From: Escherichia phage Mangalyan
Reading direction: 5' to 3' (one strand)
Sequence record: OR449013
Length of the DNA: 64,000 nt
Shown piece by piece: positions 4,342-62,079 of the stretch; position 1 is the first letter of the stretch, and every line of letters starts with the position of its first letter. The position numbers and the translations under genes were made by a program. Under the pieces are notes generated by a model. That model ran no database searches and was not told where the DNA came from. It saw nothing but the letters and a program-made list of their open reading frames with translations.

Positions 4342-5103
4342 ATGCGACGACTGATTATTATCTCCGGTGCTGGTTTGAGCGCTGAATCTGGTATTCCCAC
4401 TTTCCGATCTGGTAGCACTGCAATGTGGGAGAATTTCAGCATCGATGAGGTGTGCAACATCCACACCTTTGCCAAGAACTACTACAAGGTGCATGACTTT
4501 TACAATGCACGTCGTGTAGCTCTAGGCGGTGTTGAGCCTAACCTTGCACATCTTCGGATCGCTGAGTGGTATTCCCGCTGGTCTGGTCGTGTGATCAACC
4601 TTACCACCAATGTAGATGATTTGCTGGAGCGTGCTGGTGTAAAACATGAAGATATTTTACATGTTCACGGGTATTTGCCAGAAATAGTCTATGAGGACGA
4701 TGAAGGAAGTGACGTCATTAAGGACATTGGATACTCTGAGGTAGATGCAGGAAAGTATACCTGGGTTAAACCTAATGTGGTGTTCTTCGGAGAAGTAGCT
4801 CCGAAGTATACAGACATGTATGACCTGTTGACTTCTCTTACAAGCAATGATATGGTTATCCTTGTAGGGTGTTCCAACACAGTTATCAATTTTAACTGGG
4901 AGCTATTCCCTGCCTGCAATAAGGGCACCAAACTGCTGATCGTTAACAAATACGACTCACAGCATCTAGAGGAGAATGGCATTTCACGTAGTGATATTTA
5001 CCAGTACGAGGATCGCGGCATCCCGGTTTGGTTTAACGGGGCGGTTGACGCTTTCTCTGATAAAACATTCATTGAGACCGTAGAAAACTTTATGGAACTT
5101 TAA
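4342..5103 (+). CDS. Sir2-family protein (NAD-dependent deacylase / ADP-ribosyltransferase fold)
   Basis: canonical Sir2 NAD-binding motif GAGLSAESGIPTFR at residues 9-22, TTNVDDL, HVHGYL (catalytic His), VVFFGE; no zinc-ribbon cysteines. Confidence 0.8.
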   Translation: MRRLIIISGAGLSAESGIPTFRSGSTAMWENFSIDEVCNIHTFAKNYYKVHDFYNARRVALGGVEPNLAHLRIAEWYSRWSGRVINLTTNVDDLLERAGVKHEDILHVHGYLPEIVYEDDEGSDVIKDIGYSEVDAGKYTWVKPNVVFFGEVAPKYTDMYDLLTSLTSNDMVILVGCSNTVINFNWELFPACNKGTKLLIVNKYDSQHLEENGISRSDIYQYEDRGIPVWFNGAVDAFSDKTFIETVENFMEL

Positions 5104-21685: not shown

Positions 21686-21964
21686 ATGAGCTGTGAAAAA
21701 TCTTTTTTCTTTATTATTTACGGTAAAGATAACTGCCCACATTGTGTAAGAGCAAAAGAATTTGCAGTCAGTAAGGGTCTGCCTTTTGTATATAAGACAC
21801 TTGGCGAGGGTTACACAAAAGAAGAGCTTATTGAGAAGTGCAGTCCAATCGTACCCAGAACGTTGCCGCAGATCTTCTTAGAAAGTAATCTTGAAAGTGT
21901 CCATATAGGCGGTGCCGACGATTTCATCTCTTTTGTTAAGAATGGTTTTGGAGAGAAAAAGTGA
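21686..21964 (+). CDS. glutaredoxin-like redoxin (RNR electron donor)
   Basis: CPHC active-site motif near N-terminus; 92 aa; between nrdB and nrdD. Confidence 0.75.
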   Translation: MSCEKSFFFIIYGKDNCPHCVRAKEFAVSKGLPFVYKTLGEGYTKEELIEKCSPIVPRTLPQIFLESNLESVHIGGADDFISFVKNGFGEKK

Positions 21965-22821
21965 AAGTTGTAAAACGGGACGGTAGAGAAGAGGTCTATA
22001 ACGGAATTAAGGTGATCAAGGCGGCAGAGTCCGCCTTACTTGAGTCTGGACATACTGAAGAAGAAGCTTACCGGATCGCCTGCGCGGTTAATGAAGTTGT
22101 TGCTAACACTCTACCAACCGACCAGTGCACGATCTCTGTAAAAAATATCCATATCCTTGTTGAAGACGCTCTTATGGATATGGGTTTAAAATGTGCAGCC
22201 AGAGAATACATCCAGTATAGGCAGACAAGAGATAATAATAGAGAGGCAGGTGGAAAACTGCTTGCAGATATTAGTGGCTTCTTGGATCGCACTTGTGATG
22301 AATTTACAAAAGAAAACGCAAATAAGCCTACCAATCATGTACACACTCATCGTGACCTGCTTGCAGGCATCCTTAGCAAACACCTTGCATCAACACAGAT
22401 CCTGCCAGACCGTGTCTCAGAAGAGCACAATAGAGGCTTCATCCATGTGCATGATCTTGACTACTTGATCAGTCCGTTAACAAACTGTTGTTTGGTAAAT
22501 TATCCAGATATGTTGGAAAACGGATTCAACATTGGTAACGCCCATGTCAGTAAGCCGAAGTCAATAGGGGTTGCAACAACAATCCTTAGCCAAATCTCTA
22601 GTGCAGTAGCTAGTGCTCAATATGGTGGTCAGACTATGAGCCATATTGATCATTATCTGGCACAGTATGCTGAAGCGACCTATGAGAAGAACCTTAAATT
22701 TTGCCAGGAACATTGGTTGCCAGATGCTGAGACTGTTGCAATGCAAATGACAGATAAAGACGTATTTGACAGCATGCAGACTTTGCTCTATCAAATCAAT
22801 ACGTTAACTTCTGTCAACGGT
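21961..22821 (+). CDS. nrdD: anaerobic ribonucleotide reductase NrdD, exon 1
   Basis: GTG start overlapping upstream stop; ATP-cone MKVVKRDGREEVYN; reading frame hits TAA at 22822 exactly where a P1 helix and intron core begin. Confidence 0.8.
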
Positions 22822-23618
22822 TAACAAACTGGCCGTTGTAAAACTCTCCTAACCTCATAAGAGGGGTCGGTAAATCCGGCTAACGGGGAACGCTAAGGCG
22901 AAAGCTATGCCAATCCCGTGACTAGTTCTTACAGGAGTTGGAACGGTTGTAACGACTAACGAAAGGCAGAGATGCTTGACAAACATTTCTGAACCAAGTA
23001 GTGTAGGGGTTAGTTGAAATACTAACTTCGAAATGGAGAGGCTCTATGAAAAAGATCATTCTTAATGGTGAAGAATCAAACTATGTGATTGATGAGGTTG
23101 GAAACGTATACGGAAAACGTGGAATGCTACACCCAATATTGTGGGGAGGTTATGGAAAAGGTAAAAAGCATGTTAAACGCCGTTATATGTACTCTTTCAA
23201 CCACAAAGGTAAAAAGATTCGAATCCAAACCTCAAGGATTGTTGCCTTGTATTGTTTGCCGGATGTCCCAGAAGACCCTGAAAACTGGGAAGTGAATCAT
23301 AAAGATGGCAATACATTGAATGATCATCCGTCTAACCTAGAGTGGGTTTTGCCGGAAGATAATAAGAGACATGCTTTCCGAACAGGACTTTGTCCAGGTA
23401 AGTGCTATAGGAAAGTGCAGGCATACAAAGGGAAAACCTTGGTGGGTGAATATCCTTCACTCTATGCCTGTGCAAAAGCCTTAAATTTGAACGTAGGTAA
23501 CGTTCATAGGGCTATCGAAGGAAATGCCGAAGGTAAGCATCTCACAATAAAGGGTTATTATCTTATTGAAGTAGAGTAAGAGATAGTCTGGCCCTGTGGA
23601 AACACAGGGAGGAGACAG
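22822..23618 (+). mobile_element. group I intron (IA-like) interrupting nrdD, carrying an HNH homing endonuclease ORF
   Basis: P1: exon CAACGGU (22815-22821) pairs perfectly with intron GCCGUUG (22832-22838), U-G at splice site; core-like AACGGGGAAC and CAATCCCGTG; omega G at 23618 restores frame ...SVNG|QTPFITLSLGLDTS. Confidence 0.8.
23046..23579 (+). CDS. HNH homing endonuclease (intron-encoded)
   Basis: HNH_3-like EVNHKDGNTLNDHPSNLEWVLPEDNKRHA; strong RBS GGAGAGG before ATG; located inside the intron. Confidence 0.75.
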   Translation: MKKIILNGEESNYVIDEVGNVYGKRGMLHPILWGGYGKGKKHVKRRYMYSFNHKGKKIRIQTSRIVALYCLPDVPEDPENWEVNHKDGNTLNDHPSNLEWVLPEDNKRHAFRTGLCPGKCYRKVQAYKGKTLVGEYPSLYACAKALNLNVGNVHRAIEGNAEGKHLTIKGYYLIEVE

Positions 23619-24881
23619 CAGACTCCATTCATCACATTGAGTTTAGGACTGGATACCTCGGTCTTTGGTAGAATGATTACCAAAAACTACTTGAAAGTCC
23701 ACAAAATGGGTCTTGGTGAAGAACGTATTACACCTGTATTCCCTAAAGTGCTGTTCTTCCTGGAAGAGGGTGTTAACATGAACCCTGGGGATCCTAACTA
23801 TGATTTGAAACGATTAGCTCTGGAATGCTGTGCAGAACGTATCTACCCTGACTTCGTATCTGTACCACTAAATAGAAAAGTGACAGGCTCGACAGATGGC
23901 AAAGTAACGAGCATGGGTTGCCGGAGTTTTCTTAGCAAATATAATGACTTGGAAACAGGTGAGGAAAAATACCTTGGCAGATTCAACTTGGGTGTTGTTA
24001 GCCTTAACCTGCCAATGATTGCGGCAAAAGCTAAGACGGAAGGTGTTGATTTCTTTGCAGTTCTTGACGAATACTTGGATCTTGCATACGAGGCTCACCT
24101 TGTAAGGGTTAACCGTCTAAAAGGAACAAAGGCAGGGCAGAACCCCATCATGTGGTGTGAAGGCGCTCTTGCTCGCCTGGATCCTGAAGAAAGTATTGAT
24201 AAACTCTTCTATGACGGGTACGCTTCCATCAGCATTGGGTATATTGGTGTGTATGAAACCTGTCAGATTTTGGGCAGAGAGGGTGACAAGGCTTTAGCTC
24301 TTGGAATCCTTCAGCACATGAGAGATGCTTGTGAGCGATACAAGAAGGAAAGTAGACTAGCGTTTAGCTTGTACGGCACCCCTTCTGAGAGTCTATGCTA
24401 TAAAGCTGCAACCTGTCTGGATCGTGAATATCCTGAAGTGTTGAAGCACGAGCATGAATATCTCACCAACAGTTTCCATCAGCCAGTATGGATCAATAGC
24501 TCTCCTTTTGATAAGTGGGCGTATGAGGAAGGTTTTGCTATGATCTCCTCTGGTGGCAACATCGGATATGTAGAGACACCGAATCTGAAAAACAACTTAG
24601 ATGCTTTAGAGGCTCTTGTTGACTTCGGGTATAAACACATTATGTATTTTGGTATTAACCAACCTGTGGATAAATGTCTCAAGTGTGGTTTCTCTGGGGA
24701 GTTCAGTGCAACAGCTAAAGGCTTTGTATGCCCAGAGTGTGGAAACCATGAAGAGGGAACGATCAGTGTGATCAGACGTGTGTCTGGATACCTTTCCAGT
24801 CCTAACTCCCGTCCTTATAATAAAGGTAAGCAAGCGGAAGTTATCGAGCGAGTTAAGCACTATGGAAGTTGTAGTTGCTGA
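23619..24881 (+). CDS. nrdD: anaerobic ribonucleotide reductase NrdD, exon 2
   Basis: glycyl-radical motif RRVSGYL near C-terminus, zinc ribbon CLKCG ... CPECG; frame open from 23580; 5' boundary set by inferred 3' splice site. Confidence 0.8.
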   Translation, partial: QTPFITLSLGLDTSVFGRMITKNYLKVHKMGLGEERITPVFPKVLFFLEEGVNMNPGDPNYDLKRLALECCAERIYPDFVSVPLNRKVTGSTDGKVTSMGCRSFLSKYNDLETGEEKYLGRFNLGVVSLNLPMIAAKAKTEGVDFFAVLDEYLDLAYEAHLVRVNRLKGTKAGQNPIMWCEGALARLDPEESIDKLFYDGYASISIGYIGVYETCQILGREGDKALALGILQHMRDACERYKKESRLAFSLYGTPSESLCYKAATCLDREYPEVLKHEHEYLTNSFHQPVWINSSPFDKWAYEEGFAMISSGGNIGYVETPNLKNNLDALEALVDFGYKHIMYFGINQPVDKCLKCGFSGEFSATAKGFVCPECGNHEEGTISVIRRVSGYLSSPNSRPYNKGKQAEVIERVKHYGSCSC

Positions 24882-54898: not shown

Positions 54899-55096
54899 TT
54901 ATTTTTTATTAAACCAGTGGTTGATCTGGCCTTTTGTCAGGGCGCAACGATTAAGCTGTTGCCGGGTATAGCTCTGACCGCGACGGAATTTATAAAGGCC
55001 TTGCCCGTTGTTGATGGTTACGTCCACCTGGCAAACCATTTGATCGGTGACGGCCTGGCGAGTGTTGCGACGTACTTTAATTCCGTAGGCGTTCAT
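54899..55096 (-). CDS. hypothetical basic protein (65 aa)
   Basis: ATG preceded by AGAGAGGATAAAAAATC. Confidence 0.45.
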   Translation of the reverse strand: MNAYGIKVRRNTRQAVTDQMVCQVDVTINNGQGLYKFRRGQSYTRQQLNRCALTKGQINHWFNKK

Positions 55097-55465
55097 GATT
55101 TTTTATCCTCTCTGTTAATTAGTGTGGTGTTGTTCACCTTGCGAGGATAAGAATAACAGAACTATCCGAGCTGTCAACCATTAGTTAGAATTATTTTTTG
55201 GGCAGAATTCTCCAGCCGCCGCCCCTGCCAGGTTAACCATCATTTTTTCGTACTCTTCTTTATGTTCCAACGCTCCCGCCATAGCCTTTTCAACCAGGGC
55301 GATAACTTCAGCGGCATTGATCGCTACATTTTCCAGGGGATTATATTACTTTTCATTTTTGTACCTCTTCTGTAGCTGCTTACTTTATAGCGTGGACCTG
55401 CCAGGCTGGCCCCGCCAGGTTGCAACGGTTAGCGCATCAGGTTAGAATTTTTTTTTTGAAAAGTG

Positions 55466-55494
55466 TTGACAGCGGCCCCGCCAGGTGGCACAAT
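55466..55494 (+). promoter_or_regulatory. candidate rightward promoter driving tandem structured units
   Basis: TTGACA 55466-55471, 17-bp spacer, CACAAT; GC-rich spacer GGCCCCGCCAGGTGG. Confidence 0.4.
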
Positions 55495-55510
55495 ATACCT
55501 ATCGAAAGGA

Positions 55511-55735
55511 CGGCAGGCACCGGTGACGGGGGAGACAACCACCGGGGATGGGCGCTGCATAAAATGAGAACGGTTATCATTATCATTTAAAAATTTATGC
55601 AAAAAGTCCTTGCTTTCTTTGTCCTGTGTGATACTATAATAACAAGCCGGGGCAACAGGGGCCGGGAGACAATCACCGGGGGTGCCCGTTATTCTGCAAA
55701 CGAGAATGATTATCATTCAAAATTCTAAATGAGAA
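55511..55735 (+). ncRNA. two tandem about 85-nt related units (candidate small structured RNAs or regulatory elements)
   Basis: unit A about 55511-55600 and unit B about 55649-55735 share GGGAGACAAYCACCGGGG and GAGAAYGRTTATCATT; second unit preceded by TATAAT 55635-55640; no ORF with RBS. Confidence 0.3.
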
Positions 55736-55899
55736 CTCCTCGCATTTAATAAATTTAATTAGCATGCTAATTACCCTCCGTAACAATTTCCTATAAAACA
55801 GTATCCCATAAAATATTCCCATATAGAAATTTTAAAAATCCATTTCTGAAAACGAAAAATCGATTTCGTCCCCAAAAATTTCAGGTCGAGATCCGGAAC

Positions 55900-56025
55900 G
55901 ATTTCCAGAAAATCCGATTTAGAAAACGAAAAACAGATCGAGTACTGAGAAATTTATCGAGAAAAATTTTCAGAAAATCCAAGCCATGAAATGAAAAGTA
56001 GATCGAGTACTGGAAAAATTGTACC
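55900..56025. repeat. tandem about 65-bp AT-rich direct repeat (two units) within a larger repeat-rich spacer
   Basis: AGATCGAGTACTG at about 55935 and 56000; CAGAAAATCC at about 55908 and 55971; GAAAACGAAAAA at about 55849 and 55922. Confidence 0.7.
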
Positions 56026-56319
56026 GCAACCCACTGATAGTGATGGGTTTTCCGTCATAAATCACTAAGAGTGAGTGGAGAAAGGTATGGTGGAGAGGTG
56101 TGTATGTGTGGGAAATATGGAACGGTGATCTCGAGTATGGTGCAAACGGCTAGATAGATTGGCACAATTTTCCGCGCTTGTGTTGAAAAAATCCATTTTA
56201 GTTTTCGATCCATTTTCTGATTTTCTAAGAATTTTAAAATATCTATGTGTTCAAAATATCAGGAGAAAATACATTTTAGAAATTCCCCTGATTTCTGGCA
56301 ACTTGGCAATTTAAAAATA

Positions 56320-56652
56320 TCAGGTGCCCAGTTTGTTCTTTCCTTTATATAAACGCAAGGGTATAGTTTTTGTAACAGTCCACCTTCCCACACCTTCCCA
56401 GTTCCAGTTGTAGGCATGGTACCCGGTTACGCATGCACTGCTAGAGTGGTCATAGGCATAAGAGAACGCTATACGCACCAAATGGAACCAGTCTTTCCAC
56501 GGTTGTGGTCCGTAAGCTTTTCTCCAACACCGACACAAACTAAATGTCTCAAGAATAGGCAGGATAACAAATCCATACACCGCCACCAGAATAGCCAGCG
56601 CAATGATTGTCAGGAATACATACCCTGCAGTTGAAACGATGATCTCTGTCAT
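56320..56652 (-). CDS. membrane protein (110 aa)
   Basis: N-terminal YVFLTIIALAILVAVYGFVILPIL. Confidence 0.5.
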   Translation of the reverse strand: MTEIIVSTAGYVFLTIIALAILVAVYGFVILPILETFSLCRCWRKAYGPQPWKDWFHLVRIAFSYAYDHSSSACVTGYHAYNWNWEGVGRWTVTKTIPLRLYKGKNKLGT

Positions 56653-56852
56653 TTGTCGTCCCCTTTCTTACGGATATAGATGTGAGAGCCTGCCTGTATA
56701 TAAATTTCTCGACCATCTTCTGCAAAGATATGAAATACACGATCACCTTCATACTCGATACGTGATATCTTCATAATGGTCTTTCCACCTGGGATGCGGA
56801 TCTCGTCCCCCACAGCGATGTTCCATGCAGATTTAAGCTTAAACATCTGCAC
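56649..56852 (-). CDS. hypothetical protein (67 aa)
   Basis: ORF overlapping neighbours by 4 nt. Confidence 0.5.
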   Translation of the reverse strand: MQMFKLKSAWNIAVGDEIRIPGGKTIMKISRIEYEGDRVFHIFAEDGREIYIQAGSHIYIRKKGDDK

Positions 56853-57084
56853 CCTCCTTTGGGAACTTAAACTCTGGCATAGCCATATACGCTACAACAG
56901 GGTTGTGATCAAAGTAGAACTGACCGTTAATTATCCCGGTTTTACTCACATAGTTACCAGATCCTGCAAGAACAACCTCGCAAGCTCCGAAATCTACATT
57001 GCCATCCTCATCAGCCATGGCTACGATATACTTTCCAAGAGGCATGTTTTTAACGCCATCTACAAATGTCCACTCTGTGTTCAT
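56839..57084 (-). CDS. hypothetical protein (81 aa)
   Basis: ORF in packed array. Confidence 0.5.
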   Translation of the reverse strand: MNTEWTFVDGVKNMPLGKYIVAMADEDGNVDFGACEVVLAGSGNYVSKTGIINGQFYFDHNPVVAYMAMPEFKFPKEGADV

Positions 57085-57093
57085 ACTTTACCC

Positions 57094-57426
57094 TTAAGGT
57101 AGCCAGTAAACAATCTCGCCTTTCAGCTTCATGTCGTTTCCAACATAAATTTCCCAGCCATCCATCTTAGCAACTGTAGGCCCAAAGTCATCCGCACCCC
57201 TTACCTCTTTCCAGGTCCCGTAGTCAGGTTGCCAGATATAGAATCCACCCTCTTTATCCCATGCTCCGTACACTACGTTTAACAGGTTTCCCATTGCAAC
57301 AATGGTGGGCCGTGGGAATAATACATCTACAGATGCGCCACAATTTCTGGTATCTTTTAAGTTGCAATCCCAAAAGATGTCTGCCAGTGTGGCGGCGATA
57401 GCTTTACGTCTTTCCAATGTTACCAT
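57094..57426 (-). CDS. hypothetical protein (110 aa)
   Basis: ORF in packed array. Confidence 0.5.
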   Translation of the reverse strand: MVTLERRKAIAATLADIFWDCNLKDTRNCGASVDVLFPRPTIVAMGNLLNVVYGAWDKEGGFYIWQPDYGTWKEVRGADDFGPTVAKMDGWEIYVGNDMKLKGEIVYWLP

Positions 57427-57433
57427 ATCATAC

Positions 57434-57625
57434 TCACTTGTTGTTAATAAGTTCTAAAACTTTCTGTCTTACTTTGTCAAGGTCTGTGGATTCAAAAACT
57501 GTACGGTATCCCCAACTTTGCCCATAGGAGTGACTGCAATCCCCGTAGCACCATTGCTCAATTTGATAGTATTCAAGGAACGGGTGCTGTCTAACTATGA
57601 TACCATCTCGGTTAAAAATTACCAT
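57434..57625 (-). CDS. hypothetical protein (63 aa)
   Basis: ORF in packed array. Confidence 0.45.
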   Translation of the reverse strand: MVIFNRDGIIVRQHPFLEYYQIEQWCYGDCSHSYGQSWGYRTVFESTDLDKVRQKVLELINNK

Positions 57626-57688
57626 AATACATCGCTCTCTGTTAGTTTATGCGTATATTATACACTGCAGTTTTCAGATGTCAACCTC

Positions 57689-57940
57689 TTACAGATTGCT
57701 CCAGTACAATCGGCATTTACATTTTGGGCAATGAGGTTCTTTTATATAATAACCATCAGTCTTTGGAACACTTTTTGGTGCAGTTTTAAGATTGTACCTG
57801 GTAAAACATCGGAAGCAGGTTACCTCTCCCACCTGTTGATCGTTGATCCACTCACCAGAGTAAAGTTCTTTCTTGTTTCTCATAATTCTCTCCCAAATCA
57901 TCTGCAATCTTATACCAAAATCTCCAGCCAGAAAGCACAC
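57689..57940 (-). CDS. hypothetical zinc-ribbon protein (83 aa)
   Basis: CFRCF ... CPKCKC cysteine pairs; start uncertain. Confidence 0.4.
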   Translation of the reverse strand: MCFLAGDFGIRLQMIWERIMRNKKELYSGEWINDQQVGEVTCFRCFTRYNLKTAPKSVPKTDGYYIKEPHCPKCKCRLYWSNL

Positions 57941-58115
57941 GGGAACACTTTGAGGATTGAATCTTTACTTGGCTCGGAAGTTCTTTTTCCGTATGATAGG
58001 TAGAAATACCCTCCTGCAGATTCGAATATAGCTCCTTCGGTTGTATCTACCACAGCAAGAATTAAGATTTTAGTCTCCACAGTGCTCTCCTCTCTTAGTT
58101 GTTGTGGAAACTATA

Positions 58116-58631
58116 TCACCTCAGAAGATGGTCGTCAACACTTTTGTACTCTACTACAACCACATCAATATCTGTGGTTGCAAGATTAATTACATCTTCT
58201 ACATGTTCCCACTTTAGACCTCCAATACCGCATCCGATTTTAGGAATGTAGAACGGCAATGACATACCTTTGAATACCTCGTTGACTCGCTCAAAACCTT
58301 TCATGATTGAGAAGTATTCAGCATTGGGCCCTGGGTAGAACTGGGTATACAGGTTGATTCCATATACGACCCTGGCCTTGGCAAAATGCTCCCAACAAGA
58401 AAACATACCCAGCTTGTCTAGATTACCATAAGCAGTCTCTTTGTCGGCTGCCAGTGCTTGAGGGAACTCACGGGCAATATCTTTCGCTATACCTGCACCC
58501 ATTGTGTGAAAGCAGTTACAACCGTGGATCATGTGGCCTGACCCTTTCTTGAAAATGGAGATTAGATCTCCCTTTACAGTATCAATAATCACGGTATTCC
58601 AGCTCCTCTTCTGCAATTTCCAAAAACTCAT
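58116..58631 (-). CDS. macro-domain protein (ADP-ribose binding / processing)
   Basis: GDLISIF ... IHGCNCFHTMGAGIAKDI and IPKIGCGIGGLKWEHV match macro-domain N-x6-GxG-I-A and G-x-G-G loops; start placed at internal ATG 58631 to limit overlap. Confidence 0.65.
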   Translation of the reverse strand: MSFWKLQKRSWNTVIIDTVKGDLISIFKKGSGHMIHGCNCFHTMGAGIAKDIAREFPQALAADKETAYGNLDKLGMFSCWEHFAKARVVYGINLYTQFYPGPNAEYFSIMKGFERVNEVFKGMSLPFYIPKIGCGIGGLKWEHVEDVINLATTDIDVVVVEYKSVDDHLLR

Positions 58632-59007
58632 CCCAACCCTGTGGCATATTTGAGTTGCCGAAGTGGCTTTCGTAGTAGAGATTTTTACCACTTGGAAGGT
58701 AGAAATCTGTTACCTCATAGAATCCACAATCGTCGCACTCACCTTCTTCAAACTTGGCCTCAACCTTAATACCGAGGAAGGTGAAAAGTTTATGGATATC
58801 TTCAGTTTCGAACTCCCAGTGAATGTTGTTTTCCGCATCGGTGTAGAACTGGATCAGCAGACCATTGTCCAGTTTACCAAAATACTCTGTGAAGTAACTT
58901 CCTTCCCAGAAATCTTTATGACAAATAATATCCATGCGTTTGCCCATAATAATGGTGTGAGCGTTTTGGGCATCGTCACGAATCAGTTTTGGCATTTCAT
59001 AGGTCAT
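58582..59007 (-). CDS. hypothetical acidic protein (141 aa)
   Basis: ORF; ATG preceded by GGAGAAC. Confidence 0.5.
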   Translation of the reverse strand: MTYEMPKLIRDDAQNAHTIIMGKRMDIICHKDFWEGSYFTEYFGKLDNGLLIQFYTDAENNIHWEFETEDIHKLFTFLGIKVEAKFEEGECDDCGFYEVTDFYLPSGKNLYYESHFGNSNMPQGWDEFLEIAEEELEYRDY

Positions 59008-59075
59008 CTTAGTTCTCCGGGTTCAACAGGTGGTGGCGCTATAGGAAGATCATAAAACATGGCTATCACATCCTC

Positions 59076-59273
59076 TTACACAGGAATTGCTTCAAATAGA
59101 CCGTTATCTATACCGTCCTTCAGATAGAGATTATATTCTATGTCGGTATCTGTATAAAGGGCAGCATCCAGCATTCTATCTGTGAGTCCATCCATCGGGT
59201 GGAGAAACCACCACCCACGCCAGTCAAAGTAACAGCCTGGTGCATCTTCTCTTACACGGATTCGATAAATCAT
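59076..59273 (-). CDS. hypothetical protein (65 aa)
   Basis: ATG preceded by AGGAGG. Confidence 0.5.
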   Translation of the reverse strand: MIYRIRVREDAPGCYFDWRGWWFLHPMDGLTDRMLDAALYTDTDIEYNLYLKDGIDNGLFEAIPV

Positions 59274-59368
59274 GGGCAGTGGCCTCCTGTTAGTTATACA
59301 TCCCAGTTTTCTTCGTTCATCACGTCCTCCCGTCTATGAAGTTATAATTGCACACCTTTCAACCTGTG

Positions 59369-59785
59369 TCAACAGAAAACTTCAACAAACTCTTCCACAG
59401 TTTTAATGTCGTGGGAAAAAGGTTTACGGCTATAACGGGCAATAGCACTATCAACCACCGCTCGGTACTCAAGATCTTCAGAGTATTTCATGAAGCATTG
59501 CAGTGTTTCTGGACAGATAGCTAGATAGCTCCACCACCCTTCATCAGATTGATAGTCAAAGCCCATGCTCTCCAACCATGAAGCATATACGCCTGCACCT
59601 TCCAGCCAGTGAGTATTTTCATCCAGAAACTTGTTAACAGACATGTGAGCTTCTAAGCACTTGTCCAGCTCTTTTCCGTTAACCAGCCACGCACTAACTG
59701 TGGCGCATCCAAGGTCTACAGATTGAGTTGACAGGTTGTATTGGTCATAGTTCTCAGGTTTAACAATGATATCTTCTAATGTCAT
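59369..59785 (-). CDS. hypothetical protein (138 aa)
   Basis: ATG preceded by AAGGAGATC. Confidence 0.5.
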   Translation of the reverse strand: MTLEDIIVKPENYDQYNLSTQSVDLGCATVSAWLVNGKELDKCLEAHMSVNKFLDENTHWLEGAGVYASWLESMGFDYQSDEGWWSYLAICPETLQCFMKYSEDLEYRAVVDSAIARYSRKPFSHDIKTVEEFVEVFC

Positions 59786-59847
59786 TTTTCAGATCTCCTT
59801 ATACAAAAATGCCCCACCCTTTCGGGCAGGGCTATGTTAGTTAGGTG

Positions 59848-60471
59848 CTAAAAGTATTCATAGAGGTATCCATCGGGGGCTGGAATTTTTTCATGAATGT
59901 AGTAATCAACACATATTCCGGTTTCTCTTCTACAAGAATTGTGGGATACCCATTCTTTAAGAACGTTTCCATTCATGTCCAGCCTTCTTACATTTTTACA
60001 CCGTCTACCGCTGGTGCTTCTATGCAACAGAATATCCTCCGTCTGCTTGTCTTTATTTTCTCCCCAGGTCGTTAAACGGATATTATCAAAAGAGTACCCT
60101 TTGAAATCATCTATCCTGTCACAAGAAGGCTTTTTCCTTTTGTCGTATCCGCTGGCTACCCACTGATCATACAACTCTTTGTAACCGTTCAGGTATAGCC
60201 ACTCCTTAAACTCTTTTTTGGTGTAAGTCGGAGGAGGGTGGCCTCTTTGCTTGCTGTTGCACTTTTGAGCCTTGTACAGCACGCGTATTACACCTTTTTC
60301 TGAAGAGTCGTGGGAAAACCTGTCAGCCTCCCTGCTGGCCTTCTTGCAACACTCTTTGCACTTATTAAGATGACCGTCAGACATCTTTGGGTGTTTGTAG
60401 AACTCGGAGAGGTTTTTCACCTCTCCGCACTTGATGCACCTCTTACAATGCGTGGATTCTGCTTTTTCCAT
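59848..60471 (-). CDS. HNH-type homing endonuclease-like protein (free-standing)
   Basis: N-terminal zinc ribbon CKRCIKCG ... CKEC and [28 protein letters not shown]-like core; start placed at MEKAE (ATG 60471); overlaps 3' end of upstream gene. Confidence 0.55.
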
Positions 60472-61714
60472 ATTGCAAACCCACCGGAGCGAAAGGTATG
60501 TCATCACAGAAGTCATACTGTGCTGGATTCTGATCCATCGGGTCATCTTCCTCGTCATTTACAGGAGGAGCGTCTACAGTGTTTTGCTGTGGAGCTGCTT
60601 CCTGTTTGGCAGCTTGAGGTTCTTGATGGTCAGTGGACCCAGCACCGTTCTTGATCCAATCGTACAACGGCTCAGCCAGATTAGTCAAGACATCTTTTGC
60701 TTCTGCAGTAATTGCCGCTGCAAAATCATCAACTTTCGTTTTCTTGTCAATACGGCGACAAGCGTTCAACACCGCATTGCCGACACTGGCACCTACTTCA
60801 TCTTCAGTTCGGTTGGTGGCTTGAGCATACTCTTTCTTAAGCTCGATGGTGACTACGTGCAGTGTTTTAGCCACGCCTAGTGGGTCGTCTACCTTAAACC
60901 CACGATCCAGGATGATCTGCAACGCATTGATGCTATGCCCCGTCTCCACACCAATAGGGTCGTAAGAGGATTTACGCTTGCCACCAGGGCCTTGAGTGCC
61001 GTTCTCTGCCTTAGGTGGGTAGGCTTTGAAACCACTGATAATGTTTCCGGTGTCTTTGTCCACAATGGCTGCAACACGACCGCCTACCACCAGGTCTTTA
61101 AGCTGCTCATCAGTTACAACCATAGCACCTTCGCCAATCTTGTGGTCATTTACAGTAACCACGTTGCCAACAATCTGAGTCACATCACCATAGATGCGTA
61201 AAACGTCCTGATTGGCATTCTGCTGAGGTTTCTGCTTCTGGCCTTGTGATTGTGCACCTTGTTGCTGTTTTTGCTGCTGAGTCGCTGCTGGAGCCTCTCC
61301 TGCGCCCAGCTTAACCATCTTAGCCAGTGAGCCTTTGTAGTAGGTCTTACCGTTATGCTCGTTTGCCTTCAAAGGGATATTTACGATCCATCCTGGCGTT
61401 ACGGTTTCCCACTTGTCATCAATCTTAACAGAGACAGAGTCTTGATGACCCGGTTTAAGCAGTTTATCACCCATGCTGATCCAGACTTCTTCACCACCTT
61501 GAAGCAGGTTATCAGAGGAATCCAGTTCAGAAATCAGTAAAGAGATGGTGTGGCTGGACTCAATTTTCTTACCTTGCCACACAGTGGTTTTAATACCTGT
61601 TGTAGGATCAGCACCTTTGATAGGCTTGATGCTGACGCGTTTAATCATGCCGTGAGCCAGTAAAACAGTTTCACGCGGATTCATCGGGTTAGCGAATTGT
61701 TGAATAACGCTCAT
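60443..61714 (-). CDS. hypothetical protein with Gln-rich linker and SSB-like acidic motif DFCDDIPF (possible ssDNA-binding protein)
   Basis: 423 aa; low-complexity [22 protein letters not shown]; DDIPF (the conserved SSB C-terminal tip) lies 15 codons before the stop. Confidence 0.5.
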
Positions 61715-62079
61715 TATTTGTCTCCTTGTTCTTCGTTAGTGTTTGCCGTGTGTGCAAACCCTGCTTGAATTAATTTGTCCTGAACTTGAGCCAACAGGCC
61801 CATTGCAAAACTTGTGGTCCCAGAGAGGGCCATCAGCATATCTCGTTGTTGAGCTACCCAACCTAAGGCATAGTCCAAACGACGATATTTTTCTTCTTCA
61901 CGCAGAGCCTGAAATAATTGTTCAGCCTCCGGTTGTTGTGTGAGCTCCTGAAGTCTTCCCATGAAAGAAGAAAGCACTAGCAAAAGAGACACTTGATCTT
62001 TACTTAACCCTAAGAAAAATTCTTGAGGTTGTTCTTGCTCGTTCATCGCAACCGACGCTTGATCGTTCATTTGTTCCAT
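61714..62079 (-). CDS. hypothetical protein (121 aa)
   Basis: ATG preceded by ATCGGAGATTCC; overlaps downstream start. Confidence 0.5.
   Translation of the reverse strand: MEQMNDQASVAMNEQEQPQEFFLGLSKDQVSLLLVLSSFMGRLQELTQQPEAEQLFQALREEEKYRRLDYALGWVAQQRDMLMALSGTTSFAMGLLAQVQDKLIQAGFAHTANTNEEQGDK

Follow-up and report, generated by a model that had tools for sequence, protein, structure and literature searches.

What does a phage macrodomain act upon, and which host defence, if any, does it help the phage to survive? The DNA analyzed here (the window, 64,000 nt of Escherichia phage Mangalyan, sequence record OR449013) raises this question through one gene, which belongs to a run of small, leftward-oriented genes without assigned functions. 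The original prediction, made from the letters alone, read this gene as a macro-domain protein and took it, together with a Sir2 gene, as a sign that the phage acts on ADP-ribose or NAD-derived chemistry, possibly against NAD-depleting or ADP-ribosylating host defences.

More than 100 rV5-like phages, among them the Vequintavirus members bov10K2, PMBT16, slur16, and rV5, match the 3-kb region around the macro gene at 93-96% identity, and the window is that of an rV5-like Vequintavirus. By sequence comparison the gene is real, conserved, and already annotated, the counterpart of T4 tk.4 / adfM and the ortholog of rV5 gp204; in related phages GenBank names it ‘tk.4: phosphatase’, ‘macro domain protein’, ‘Poa1p-like family protein’, or ‘O-acetyl-ADP-ribose deacetylase’.

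58116..58592, minus strand: macro-domain CDS, 158 aa, GTG start, T4 tk.4 / adfM ortholog (profiles, orthology, model, dN/dS)

The family is already known and recently characterized, and the identification is correct and ordinary. Searches recover 378 macro homologues at E <= 1e-3 in a 90%-identity cluster database and, with a family profile, 1,325 cluster representatives at 50% identity with E <= 1e-30. The gene occurs in 2,733 phage records, or about 5%, the T4-like phages forming the largest group, alongside rV5-like, Felix O1-like, Pakpunavirus, Vi01-like, and other phages. The macro gene is under purifying selection, with a dN/dS of 0.17 against rV5 and 0.12 against phage BP9. To what is otherwise a routine member of a very large and widespread phage macrodomain family the present analysis makes three modest additions, namely a corrected start codon, a glutamine-centred active site of the SCO6735 type, and a macro plus Zn-ribbon block held in common with Krischvirus.

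Start codon and 3′ end of the macro gene

The minus-strand open reading frame that ends with the stop codon at 58116 contains the GDL, IHGCNCFHTMGAGIAKDI and IPKIGCGIGGLKWEHV motifs from which a macro domain was first proposed. That frame and its stop codon stand; the ATG at 58631, taken as the start in the originally predicted span of 58116-58631, probably lies 39 nt too far upstream. Judged from sequence comparison, the true start is most likely the GTG at 58592. The first residues of T4 Tk.4, Krischvirus JSE Tk.4, rV5 gp204, and the BP9 protein all fall at the equivalent of this codon (MI(I/V)..KGD), and a Shine-Dalgarno sequence precedes it:

58603..58608, minus strand: GAGGAG Shine-Dalgarno sequence, 10 nt 5′ of the GTG, conserved in rV5, BP9, and PMBT16

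The upstream ATG is not conserved, since rV5 has CTG in its place. The start was placed at the GTG on these three grounds, namely the homologue starts, the GAGGAG, and the non-conserved ATG, and a longer frame from either the ATG at 58631 or a GTG at 58691 was rejected. In the resulting CDS the first 11 nt overlap the end of the preceding gene, including its stop codon.

At its other end the gene departs from those of its relatives through a single nucleotide.

58142..58145, minus strand: A4 run (A5 in relatives), a 1-nt deletion near the 3′ end seen by comparison with rV5, BP9, and PMBT16

Because the run is shorter by 1 nt, the protein terminates in SVDDHLLR* in place of KC*. This tail is modelled with a pLDDT below 50 and lies beyond the last strand of the predicted structure.

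A stand-alone macrodomain of the TARG1/DarG/SCO6735 class

Profile searching, the check proposed with the original prediction, returns the Pfam Macro family (PF01661) at 25.7 bits against a gathering score of 22 (E 1.2e-5, profile positions 1-117 of 118), and PHROG 335 matches at E 1.4e-60. Of the DarG models in NCBIfam and PADLOC, only the macro portion aligns (E 5e-12 and 1e-12, respectively). For the former the score is 45.7 bits against a cut-off of 250, and the match extends over positions 2-145 of the 338-position model; a DarG-type C-terminal domain is absent.

An AlphaFold model computed with 69 homologues (alignment A1) has a pLDDT of 93.2 and a pTM of 0.88 and displays the three-layer alpha/beta/alpha macro fold. 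When this model was compared with the PDB using Foldseek, the best matches were TARG1, the DarGs of Thermus and Mycobacterium tuberculosis, Poa1p, BT1257, and SCO6735, at TM values of about 0.7; 146 PDB entries match at E <= 0.001, and the top 50 listed are macrodomains or designed proteins of similar fold. The same set of macrodomains leads the sequence and profile searches (profile-to-PDB E ~3e-14). The macro-domain call is thus borne out by a Pfam hit above threshold, by a predicted fold with its ADP-ribose cleft, and by two conserved glycine-rich ADP-ribose-binding loops described below. The protein is a stand-alone macrodomain of about 150 aa belonging to the TARG1/DarG/SCO6735 (ALC1-like) class. 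Protein-Glu-ADP-ribose, O-acyl-ADP-ribose, and ADP-ribose-1′′-phosphate are further substrates of macrodomains in this class, and the substrate is not readable from sequence.

A glutamine in place of the catalytic lysine

Alignment A1 contains 14 columns that are invariant across its 69 sequences, and all 14 are present in the window protein. They include Asn26, residues of the first glycine-rich loop, Asn80, Tyr82, Thr83, Gln84, Pro117, Gly120, and Gly122, and they outline the following elements of the active site:

58515-58517, minus strand: codon of Asn26, just upstream of MGAGIA, aligned with SCO6735 Asn27 and DarG Asn22
58485..58502, minus strand: predicted first glycine-rich ADP-ribose phosphate-binding loop, M31-A36 (MGAGIA), from A1 conservation
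58341..58343, minus strand: codon of Gln84 in N-x-Y-T-Q, at the catalytic-residue position of the class, invariant in A1
58218..58238, minus strand: predicted second glycine-rich, diphosphate-binding loop, I119-G125 (IGCGIGG), from A1 conservation

Within the first loop M31, G34, and A36 are invariant and G32, A33, and I35 are conserved in at least 90% of sequences; the second combines invariant G120 and G122 with I119 and G125 at 90% or more. H23 also reaches at least 90% among the 69 homologues.

Profile-to-PDB alignments place Gln84 in a column occupied by Gln85 in SCO6735, a glutamine in BT1257, Lys80 in DarG, and Lys84 in TARG1. H23 and G122 align with SCO6735 His24 and Gly128. Both SCO6735 (PDB 5E3B) and BT1257 (2FG1/2AFC) are stand-alone proteins of the same class, about 24% identical to the phage protein, that possess the glutamine rather than a lysine together with the conserved Asn, His, and Gly. 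SCO6735 is described as having no DarT nearby, and the same holds for a bacterial homologue of the phage protein, from Pelagimonas, whose chromosomal gene likewise stands alone. On the evidence of these alignments the phage family has a glutamine centre of the SCO6735 type. SCO6735 releases ADP-ribose from thymidine in DNA, an activity that the Q85A mutation abolishes; its Asn27 locks the rotamer of the glutamine, and a G128E mutation impairs activity (PMC9411070). In the same work, the glutamine was indispensable with DNA substrates yet dispensable with protein ones, and an inactive SCO6735 mutant still inhibited DarT through binding (PMC9411070).

Closer comparison also reveals features that set the phage protein apart from SCO6735. 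The loop that follows the glutamine, Gln84 to Tyr93, spans nine residues in the phage protein versus about 14 in SCO6735, and it lacks any lysine, whereas SCO6735 contains Lys89, which aids DNA binding (PMC9411070). DarG and TARG1 have a similarly short mobile loop after this position. Furthermore, Val25 of SCO6735 is replaced by Gly24, which is invariant in the phage family, and the invariant Asp50 is private to that family.

DarG (Thermus aquaticus 5M31/5M3E, M. tuberculosis 5M3I) and the PhiKZ macrodomain AdfM share the fold (TM ~0.72) and the conserved Asn but carry a catalytic lysine (K80 and K78, respectively) where the window protein has Gln84. DarG further has a DarT-binding C-terminal domain of some 200 aa and is encoded next to darT, features that do not accompany the window protein; no darT was recognized beside the macro gene, Pfam matching only a phage Zn-binding domain among the flanking open reading frames from 56320 to 61714. 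The annotated neighbours of the macro gene in rV5 are hypothetical proteins and, about 1.3 kb upstream, an endonuclease. The compact macrodomain TARG1/OARD1 (PDB 4J5R/4J5S), the top structural match, relies on a Lys84/Asp125 dyad, for which the window protein has Gln84 and, in the profile-to-PDB alignment, Gly124. TARG1 also reverses DarT-type DNA ADP-ribosylation (PMC8501950).

Orthology to T4 Tk.4 and the case for DNA as substrate

T4 Tk.4 and the window protein are 39% identical over their full lengths (E 4e-44, residues 1-152 against 1-154), and each is the sole hit of the other, that is, a reciprocal best hit. T4 Tk.4, rV5 gp204, and bas59_0089 of Bas59 have the same stand-alone form of about 155 aa, the Bas59 protein being 99% identical to that of the window, and the T4 Tk.4/AdfM family is marked by the common motifs HGCNCFHTMG(A/S)G, NLYTQ, and P(K/R)IG(C/A)GIG.

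A 2025 preprint reports that T4 tk.4 alone emerged from HIDEN-SEQ as required on a DarTG2 host and that a clean tk.4 knockout sensitized T4 to DarTG2, and it names the gene adfM, for anti-DarT factor macrodomain (bioRxiv 10.1101/2025.11.20.689424). The T4 evidence is genetic, and it shows the anti-DarTG2 phenotype for T4 only; no DarTG2 screen of Bas54, the member of the Vequintavirinae in the study, was found in it. Our literature search found no DarTG2 results on Vequintavirus or rV5-like phages and no published biochemistry on a phage macrodomain of the glutamine type. PhiKZ gp104, 23% identical to the window protein, was independently named AdfM in a 2026 paper; it strips DarT2-made ADP-ribose off an oligonucleotide in vitro and rescues cells from DarT2 toxicity, and N23 and K78 are its putative active-site residues from a structural model (PMC13309987). 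Removal of ADP-ribose placed by DarT2 on thymidine in single-stranded DNA, demonstrated for DarG and PhiKZ AdfM, is the activity that we propose for the window protein. ICP1 AdfB, considered as a further member of the family, was set aside; it appears to act through DarT binding, with no macrodomain assigned.

Given the orthology to T4 AdfM and the active-site identity with SCO6735, the window gene, the Vequintavirus ortholog of T4 Tk.4 (AdfM), probably encodes a DNA ADP-ribosylglycohydrolase that acts early against DarT2. Its substrate, the timing of its expression, and an anti-DarT2 phenotype in this phage we infer by homology. The earlier suggestion that the protein counters an ADP-ribosylating host defence gains support from this orthology. 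Low identity counts against the assignment, at 39% to T4 Tk.4, 23% to PhiKZ AdfM, and 20-25% to SCO6735, DarG, and TARG1, as do the short loop after Gln84 with no counterpart of Lys89 and the breadth of substrates in the class.

The enzyme could instead remove ADP-ribose from phage or host proteins or RNA, reversing the marks left by a host toxin (for example an mRNA-modifying ADP-ribosyltransferase) or by phage enzymes of the T4 Alt/Mod kind. TARG1 and SCO6735 do hydrolyse protein-linked ADP-ribose as well (PMC9411070), and the class is versatile (PMC9503650). We nonetheless regard this as quite improbable. The T4 phenotype is specific to DarTG2, and no ADP-ribosyltransferase was recognized by Pfam among the open reading frames flanking the macro gene. 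The strict invariance of Gln84 also argues for DNA activity, because the corresponding residue of SCO6735 is needed for DNA and not for protein substrates.

It is likewise unlikely that the protein functions upon soluble ADP-ribose compounds, hydrolysing or sequestering ADP-ribose-1′′-phosphate or cyclic and variant ADP-ribose signals, or providing ADP-ribose for NAD reconstitution, and would thereby weaken NAD-based defences, Thoeris or RES-type toxins for example. The GenBank names ‘phosphatase’ and ‘Poa1p-like’ and the presence of Poa1p among the structural neighbours would agree with such a role, and a comparative-genomics survey has phage macro domains acting mainly on low-molecular-weight ADP-ribose derivatives (PMC9503650). 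Some homologues, in phi92 and an Acinetobacter phage, adjoin NAD-salvage-like genes, encoding a nicotinamide phosphoribosyltransferase or a PRTase-like protein, which would also fit a small-molecule role. Against these points, the active-site residues match those of the DNA-active SCO6735, the only functional results on the T4 ortholog point to DarTG2, a DNA modifier, and a Pfam scan of the flanking open reading frames recognized no NAD-salvage gene beside the macro gene. Recurrent fusions to NADAR domains, present in 5 of the 10 multidomain relatives scanned, also weigh against it. NADAR is an eraser of DarT1 guanine ADP-ribosylation, and its fusion to macrodomains fits repair of ADP-ribosylated nucleic acid. 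No pointer was found to the originally suggested role against NAD depletion or in degrading soluble NAD-derived signals.

A separate NADAR (AdfN-type) gene was also sought in the window. Pfam gave no match in 10 open reading frames of 152-237 aa (nine of unassigned function and one pyrophosphohydrolase-like), nor did an ad hoc five-sequence NADAR profile of low sensitivity match the six-frame translation of the window. T5 is reported to be DarTG2-sensitive, and a six-frame profile search of its complete 121,750-bp genome found no Tk.4-type macro gene, a concordance that favours the anti-DarT2 reading.

Largely independent distributions of the macro gene and the Sir2 gene

The Sir2 gene with which the original prediction coupled the macro gene lies elsewhere in the window.

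4342-5103, plus strand: Sir2 gene, separated from the macro gene by 53 kb and transcribed in another block

It adjoins an RNA ligase and a pyrophosphohydrolase-like gene. Its product, which keeps the catalytic His, is a class III sirtuin of CobB/Sirt5-like character, not the SirTM type that partners macrodomains. Its homologues occur in 1,009 phage records from rV5-like, T5-like, phi92/PVP-SE1-like, and jumbo Vibrio phages.

Were the two proteins partners, the macrodomain would deacylate O-acyl-ADP-ribose made by the sirtuin or reverse ADP-ribosylation of a target by Sir2. In favour of this, one of the closest structures, TARG1/OARD1, deacylates O-acyl-ADP-ribose, the phage Sir2 is similar to the deacylases CobB and Sirt5 and has its catalytic His intact, and both genes occur in rV5-like phages, phi92-like phages, and Vibrio phage D491s. 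Genome organization and distribution speak otherwise, making this partnership very unlikely. The genes are on opposite strands, neither adjacent nor co-transcribed, and they occur in largely different phage taxa. None of 60 Sir2-bearing records, sampled at even steps from the 1,009, matches a T4-like phage in genome size, even though macro carriers are most numerous among the T4-like phages; conversely, an even-step sample of macro-bearing records contains no T5-like genome, and T5 itself carries Sir2 without a Tk.4-type macro gene. Pseudomonas, Acinetobacter, Aeromonas, and Shigella phages supply 474 macro-bearing records, yet these four names are absent from the ten commonest among Sir2-bearing records, the tenth of which accounts for 7 records. 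Finally, known Sir2-macro operons pair SirTM with a zinc-containing MacroD-type macrodomain (PMC11490716), and neither type is found here. The proposed coupling is therefore not upheld by the distance of 53 kb, the opposite strands, the CobB-like character of the sirtuin, and the largely independent distributions; a biochemical link through O-acyl-ADP-ribose is conceivable, without support here.

Gene neighbourhood and a companion Zn-ribbon gene

The surroundings of the macro gene comprise three small genes and several candidate transcription signals:

59811..59832, minus strand: strong terminator-like hairpin (9 bp, 7 GC, T-run) that would close the preceding transcription unit
59344..59372, minus strand: candidate sigma-70 promoter (TTGACA, 17-nt spacer, TG-AATTAT) 5′ of the macro operon, a consensus match only
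58582..59007, minus strand: upstream gene, 141 aa, PHROG 8157, whose stop codon overlaps the macro start by 11 nt
57910..58080, minus strand: 56-aa open reading frame, PHROG 15268, between the macro and Zn-ribbon genes
57689..57883, minus strand: small Zn-ribbon protein gene, Pfam PF23903, with a homologue directly 3′ of tk.4 in Krischvirus JSE
57657..57684, minus strand: perfect 12/12 sigma-70 consensus 3′ of the Zn-ribbon gene, equivalent to rV5 P205, which would start the next unit

A search of 55000-62000 for RNA families gave none at E <= 0.01.

T4 tk.4 likewise resides in a block of small non-structural genes, in the order vs - tk.4 - tk.3, whereas the window gene is coupled translationally to the PHROG 8157 gene and followed by the Zn-ribbon gene, which T4 lacks at that position. 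The closer parallel is Krischvirus JSE. Its Tk.4 is 68% identical to the window macro protein, the Zn-ribbon protein is 78% identical to the product of a JSE gene that overlaps the end of tk.4, and apart from these two no gene of the JSE tk region has a homologue in the window. To judge from these identities, a two-gene macro plus Zn-ribbon block has evidently moved between these unrelated phage groups. T4 Tk.3 was considered as a homologue of the Zn-ribbon protein, and no similarity was found. Zn-ribbon hits in Klebsiella T4-like phages (43% identity, E 6e-4), about 1 kb 3′ of tk.4, were not counted as linkage; they probably lie in the zinc-binding part of thymidine kinase, because one of them is annotated so.

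Proposed mechanism and implications

As an anti-DarT2 glycohydrolase, the macro protein would probably be expressed early in infection, because its gene sits among small genes with sigma-70-type promoter-like sites. The enzyme would bind the ADP-ribose that DarT2-type toxins attach to thymidine of single-stranded phage DNA and hydrolyse the base-ribose bond; the DNA would be replicable again, so that the phage would escape DarTG2 defence. Since the usual lysine nucleophile is absent, catalysis would probably follow the SCO6735 route, in which Asn26 would position Gln84 and Gln84 would orient the distal ribose for attack by an activated water. As for SCO6735, the protein may in addition inhibit DarT through direct binding.

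A broader reading, which we offer tentatively and consider doubtful as a whole, joins three propositions. First, the whole Tk.4/AdfM family would use a lysine-free mechanism with a water-activating glutamine, otherwise described only for SCO6735. Second, its ancestors would be stand-alone bacterial ‘genome-guardian’ macrodomains rather than DarG antitoxins. Third, in Vequintavirus and Krischvirus the macrodomain would form a module with the co-transferred Zn-ribbon encoded at 57689-57883, which could confer single-stranded DNA targeting or DarT binding and so stand in for the C-terminal domain of DarG.

Only in the catalytic residue does the analysis reach slightly past the literature consulted. 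In the T4/rV5 AdfM lineage this residue is a glutamine, where PhiKZ AdfM and DarG carry a lysine, and phages may therefore have recruited two chemically different macrodomain lineages for the same job. Phages of the rV5-like group are often considered for therapy against E. coli O157. If the anti-DarT2 assignment is true, rV5-like phages would carry a built-in counter to DarTG2, knowledge of which would help to predict their host range on DarTG-positive strains.

The macro and Zn-ribbon genes shared with Krischvirus JSE

Comparison of the macro gene neighborhood with the tk region of the Krischvirus JSE centers on the following features.

58116-58592, minus strand, macro gene
57689-57883, minus strand, gene for a small Zn-ribbon protein (Pfam PF23903)
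L009 (phage JSE) 1556-2195, counterpart region

JSE Tk.4 shares 68% identity with the macro protein of the window, and the product of the JSE gene overlapping the end of tk.4 is 78% identical to the window Zn-ribbon protein. Among the genes of the JSE tk region, this pair alone has window homologues, which suggests that macro and Zn-ribbon genes were transferred laterally as a two-gene block, possibly a functional one.

Sixteen GenBank records of the MG0656xx series, named 'Campylobacter phage' (matches H15, H20, H21, H24 and H25 among them), are 93-94% identical to the E. coli rV5-like macro region of the window. Campylobacter jejuni is the stated host in 15 of the 16, a host label that is unexpected in this genus.

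Conserved and variable positions of the macro gene

58443-58445, codon Asp50, within the A-(A/E)-D-K motif
58142-58145, minus strand, homopolymer run of four A (A4)

Asp50 is invariant across the family (69/69 members), and alignments with the macrodomain proteins SCO6735, DarG and TARG1 reveal no conserved counterpart of this residue in any of the three. The 3' end of the gene varies. The window carries A4 where the relatives rV5, BP9 and PMBT16 carry A5, a difference that shifts the final codons such that the window protein ends in SVDDHLLR* as opposed to KC* with A5. Either the A4 run is natural and harmless, or it reflects a sequencing error.

Other features of the window

21961-22820 and 23618-24881, nrdD (anaerobic ribonucleotide reductase gene), in two pieces
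22821-23617, insertion in nrdD, 797 nt
23046-23579, HNH_3 endonuclease ORF, inside the insertion
59848-60558, minus strand, endonuclease-VII-like gene, longest ORF
60443-61714, minus strand, 423-aa Gln-rich protein, longest ORF, upstream of the endonuclease-VII-like gene

The insertion breaks nrdD between nucleotides 860 and 861; the rV5 gene is continuous. The Rfam group I intron model matches below threshold at 23322-23609 (27.7 bits, gathering score 50; E 1e-4). With this match and its endonuclease ORF, the insertion resembles a mobile group I intron of the kind present in T4 nrdD.

The endonuclease-VII-like and Gln-rich longest ORFs overlap by 116 nt. In rV5 the endonuclease CDS is annotated as shorter (624 nt) but shares 29 nt with the gene upstream of it. 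Pfam searches matched neither of the two proteins.

Genomic partners of macro homologues

L006 (phage phi92) 2740-3456, macro homologue, 238 aa

The phi92 homologue bears an N-terminal extension of approximately 85 residues and adjoins a phosphoribosyltransferase-like gene. In Acinetobacter phage B09_Aci02-2 (H65), the macro match overlaps or directly borders an annotated nicotinamide phosphoribosyltransferase gene. Given these phosphoribosyltransferase-type neighbors, some macro relatives may have a connection to NAD salvage.

Among metagenomic relatives, Tk.4-type macrodomains are recurrently fused to NADAR (PF08719) and DUF4326 (P0146, P0194, P0247, P0186, P0214 and P0135). Such fusions would place erasers of both thymidine-linked and guanine-linked DNA ADP-ribosylation on a single polypeptide.
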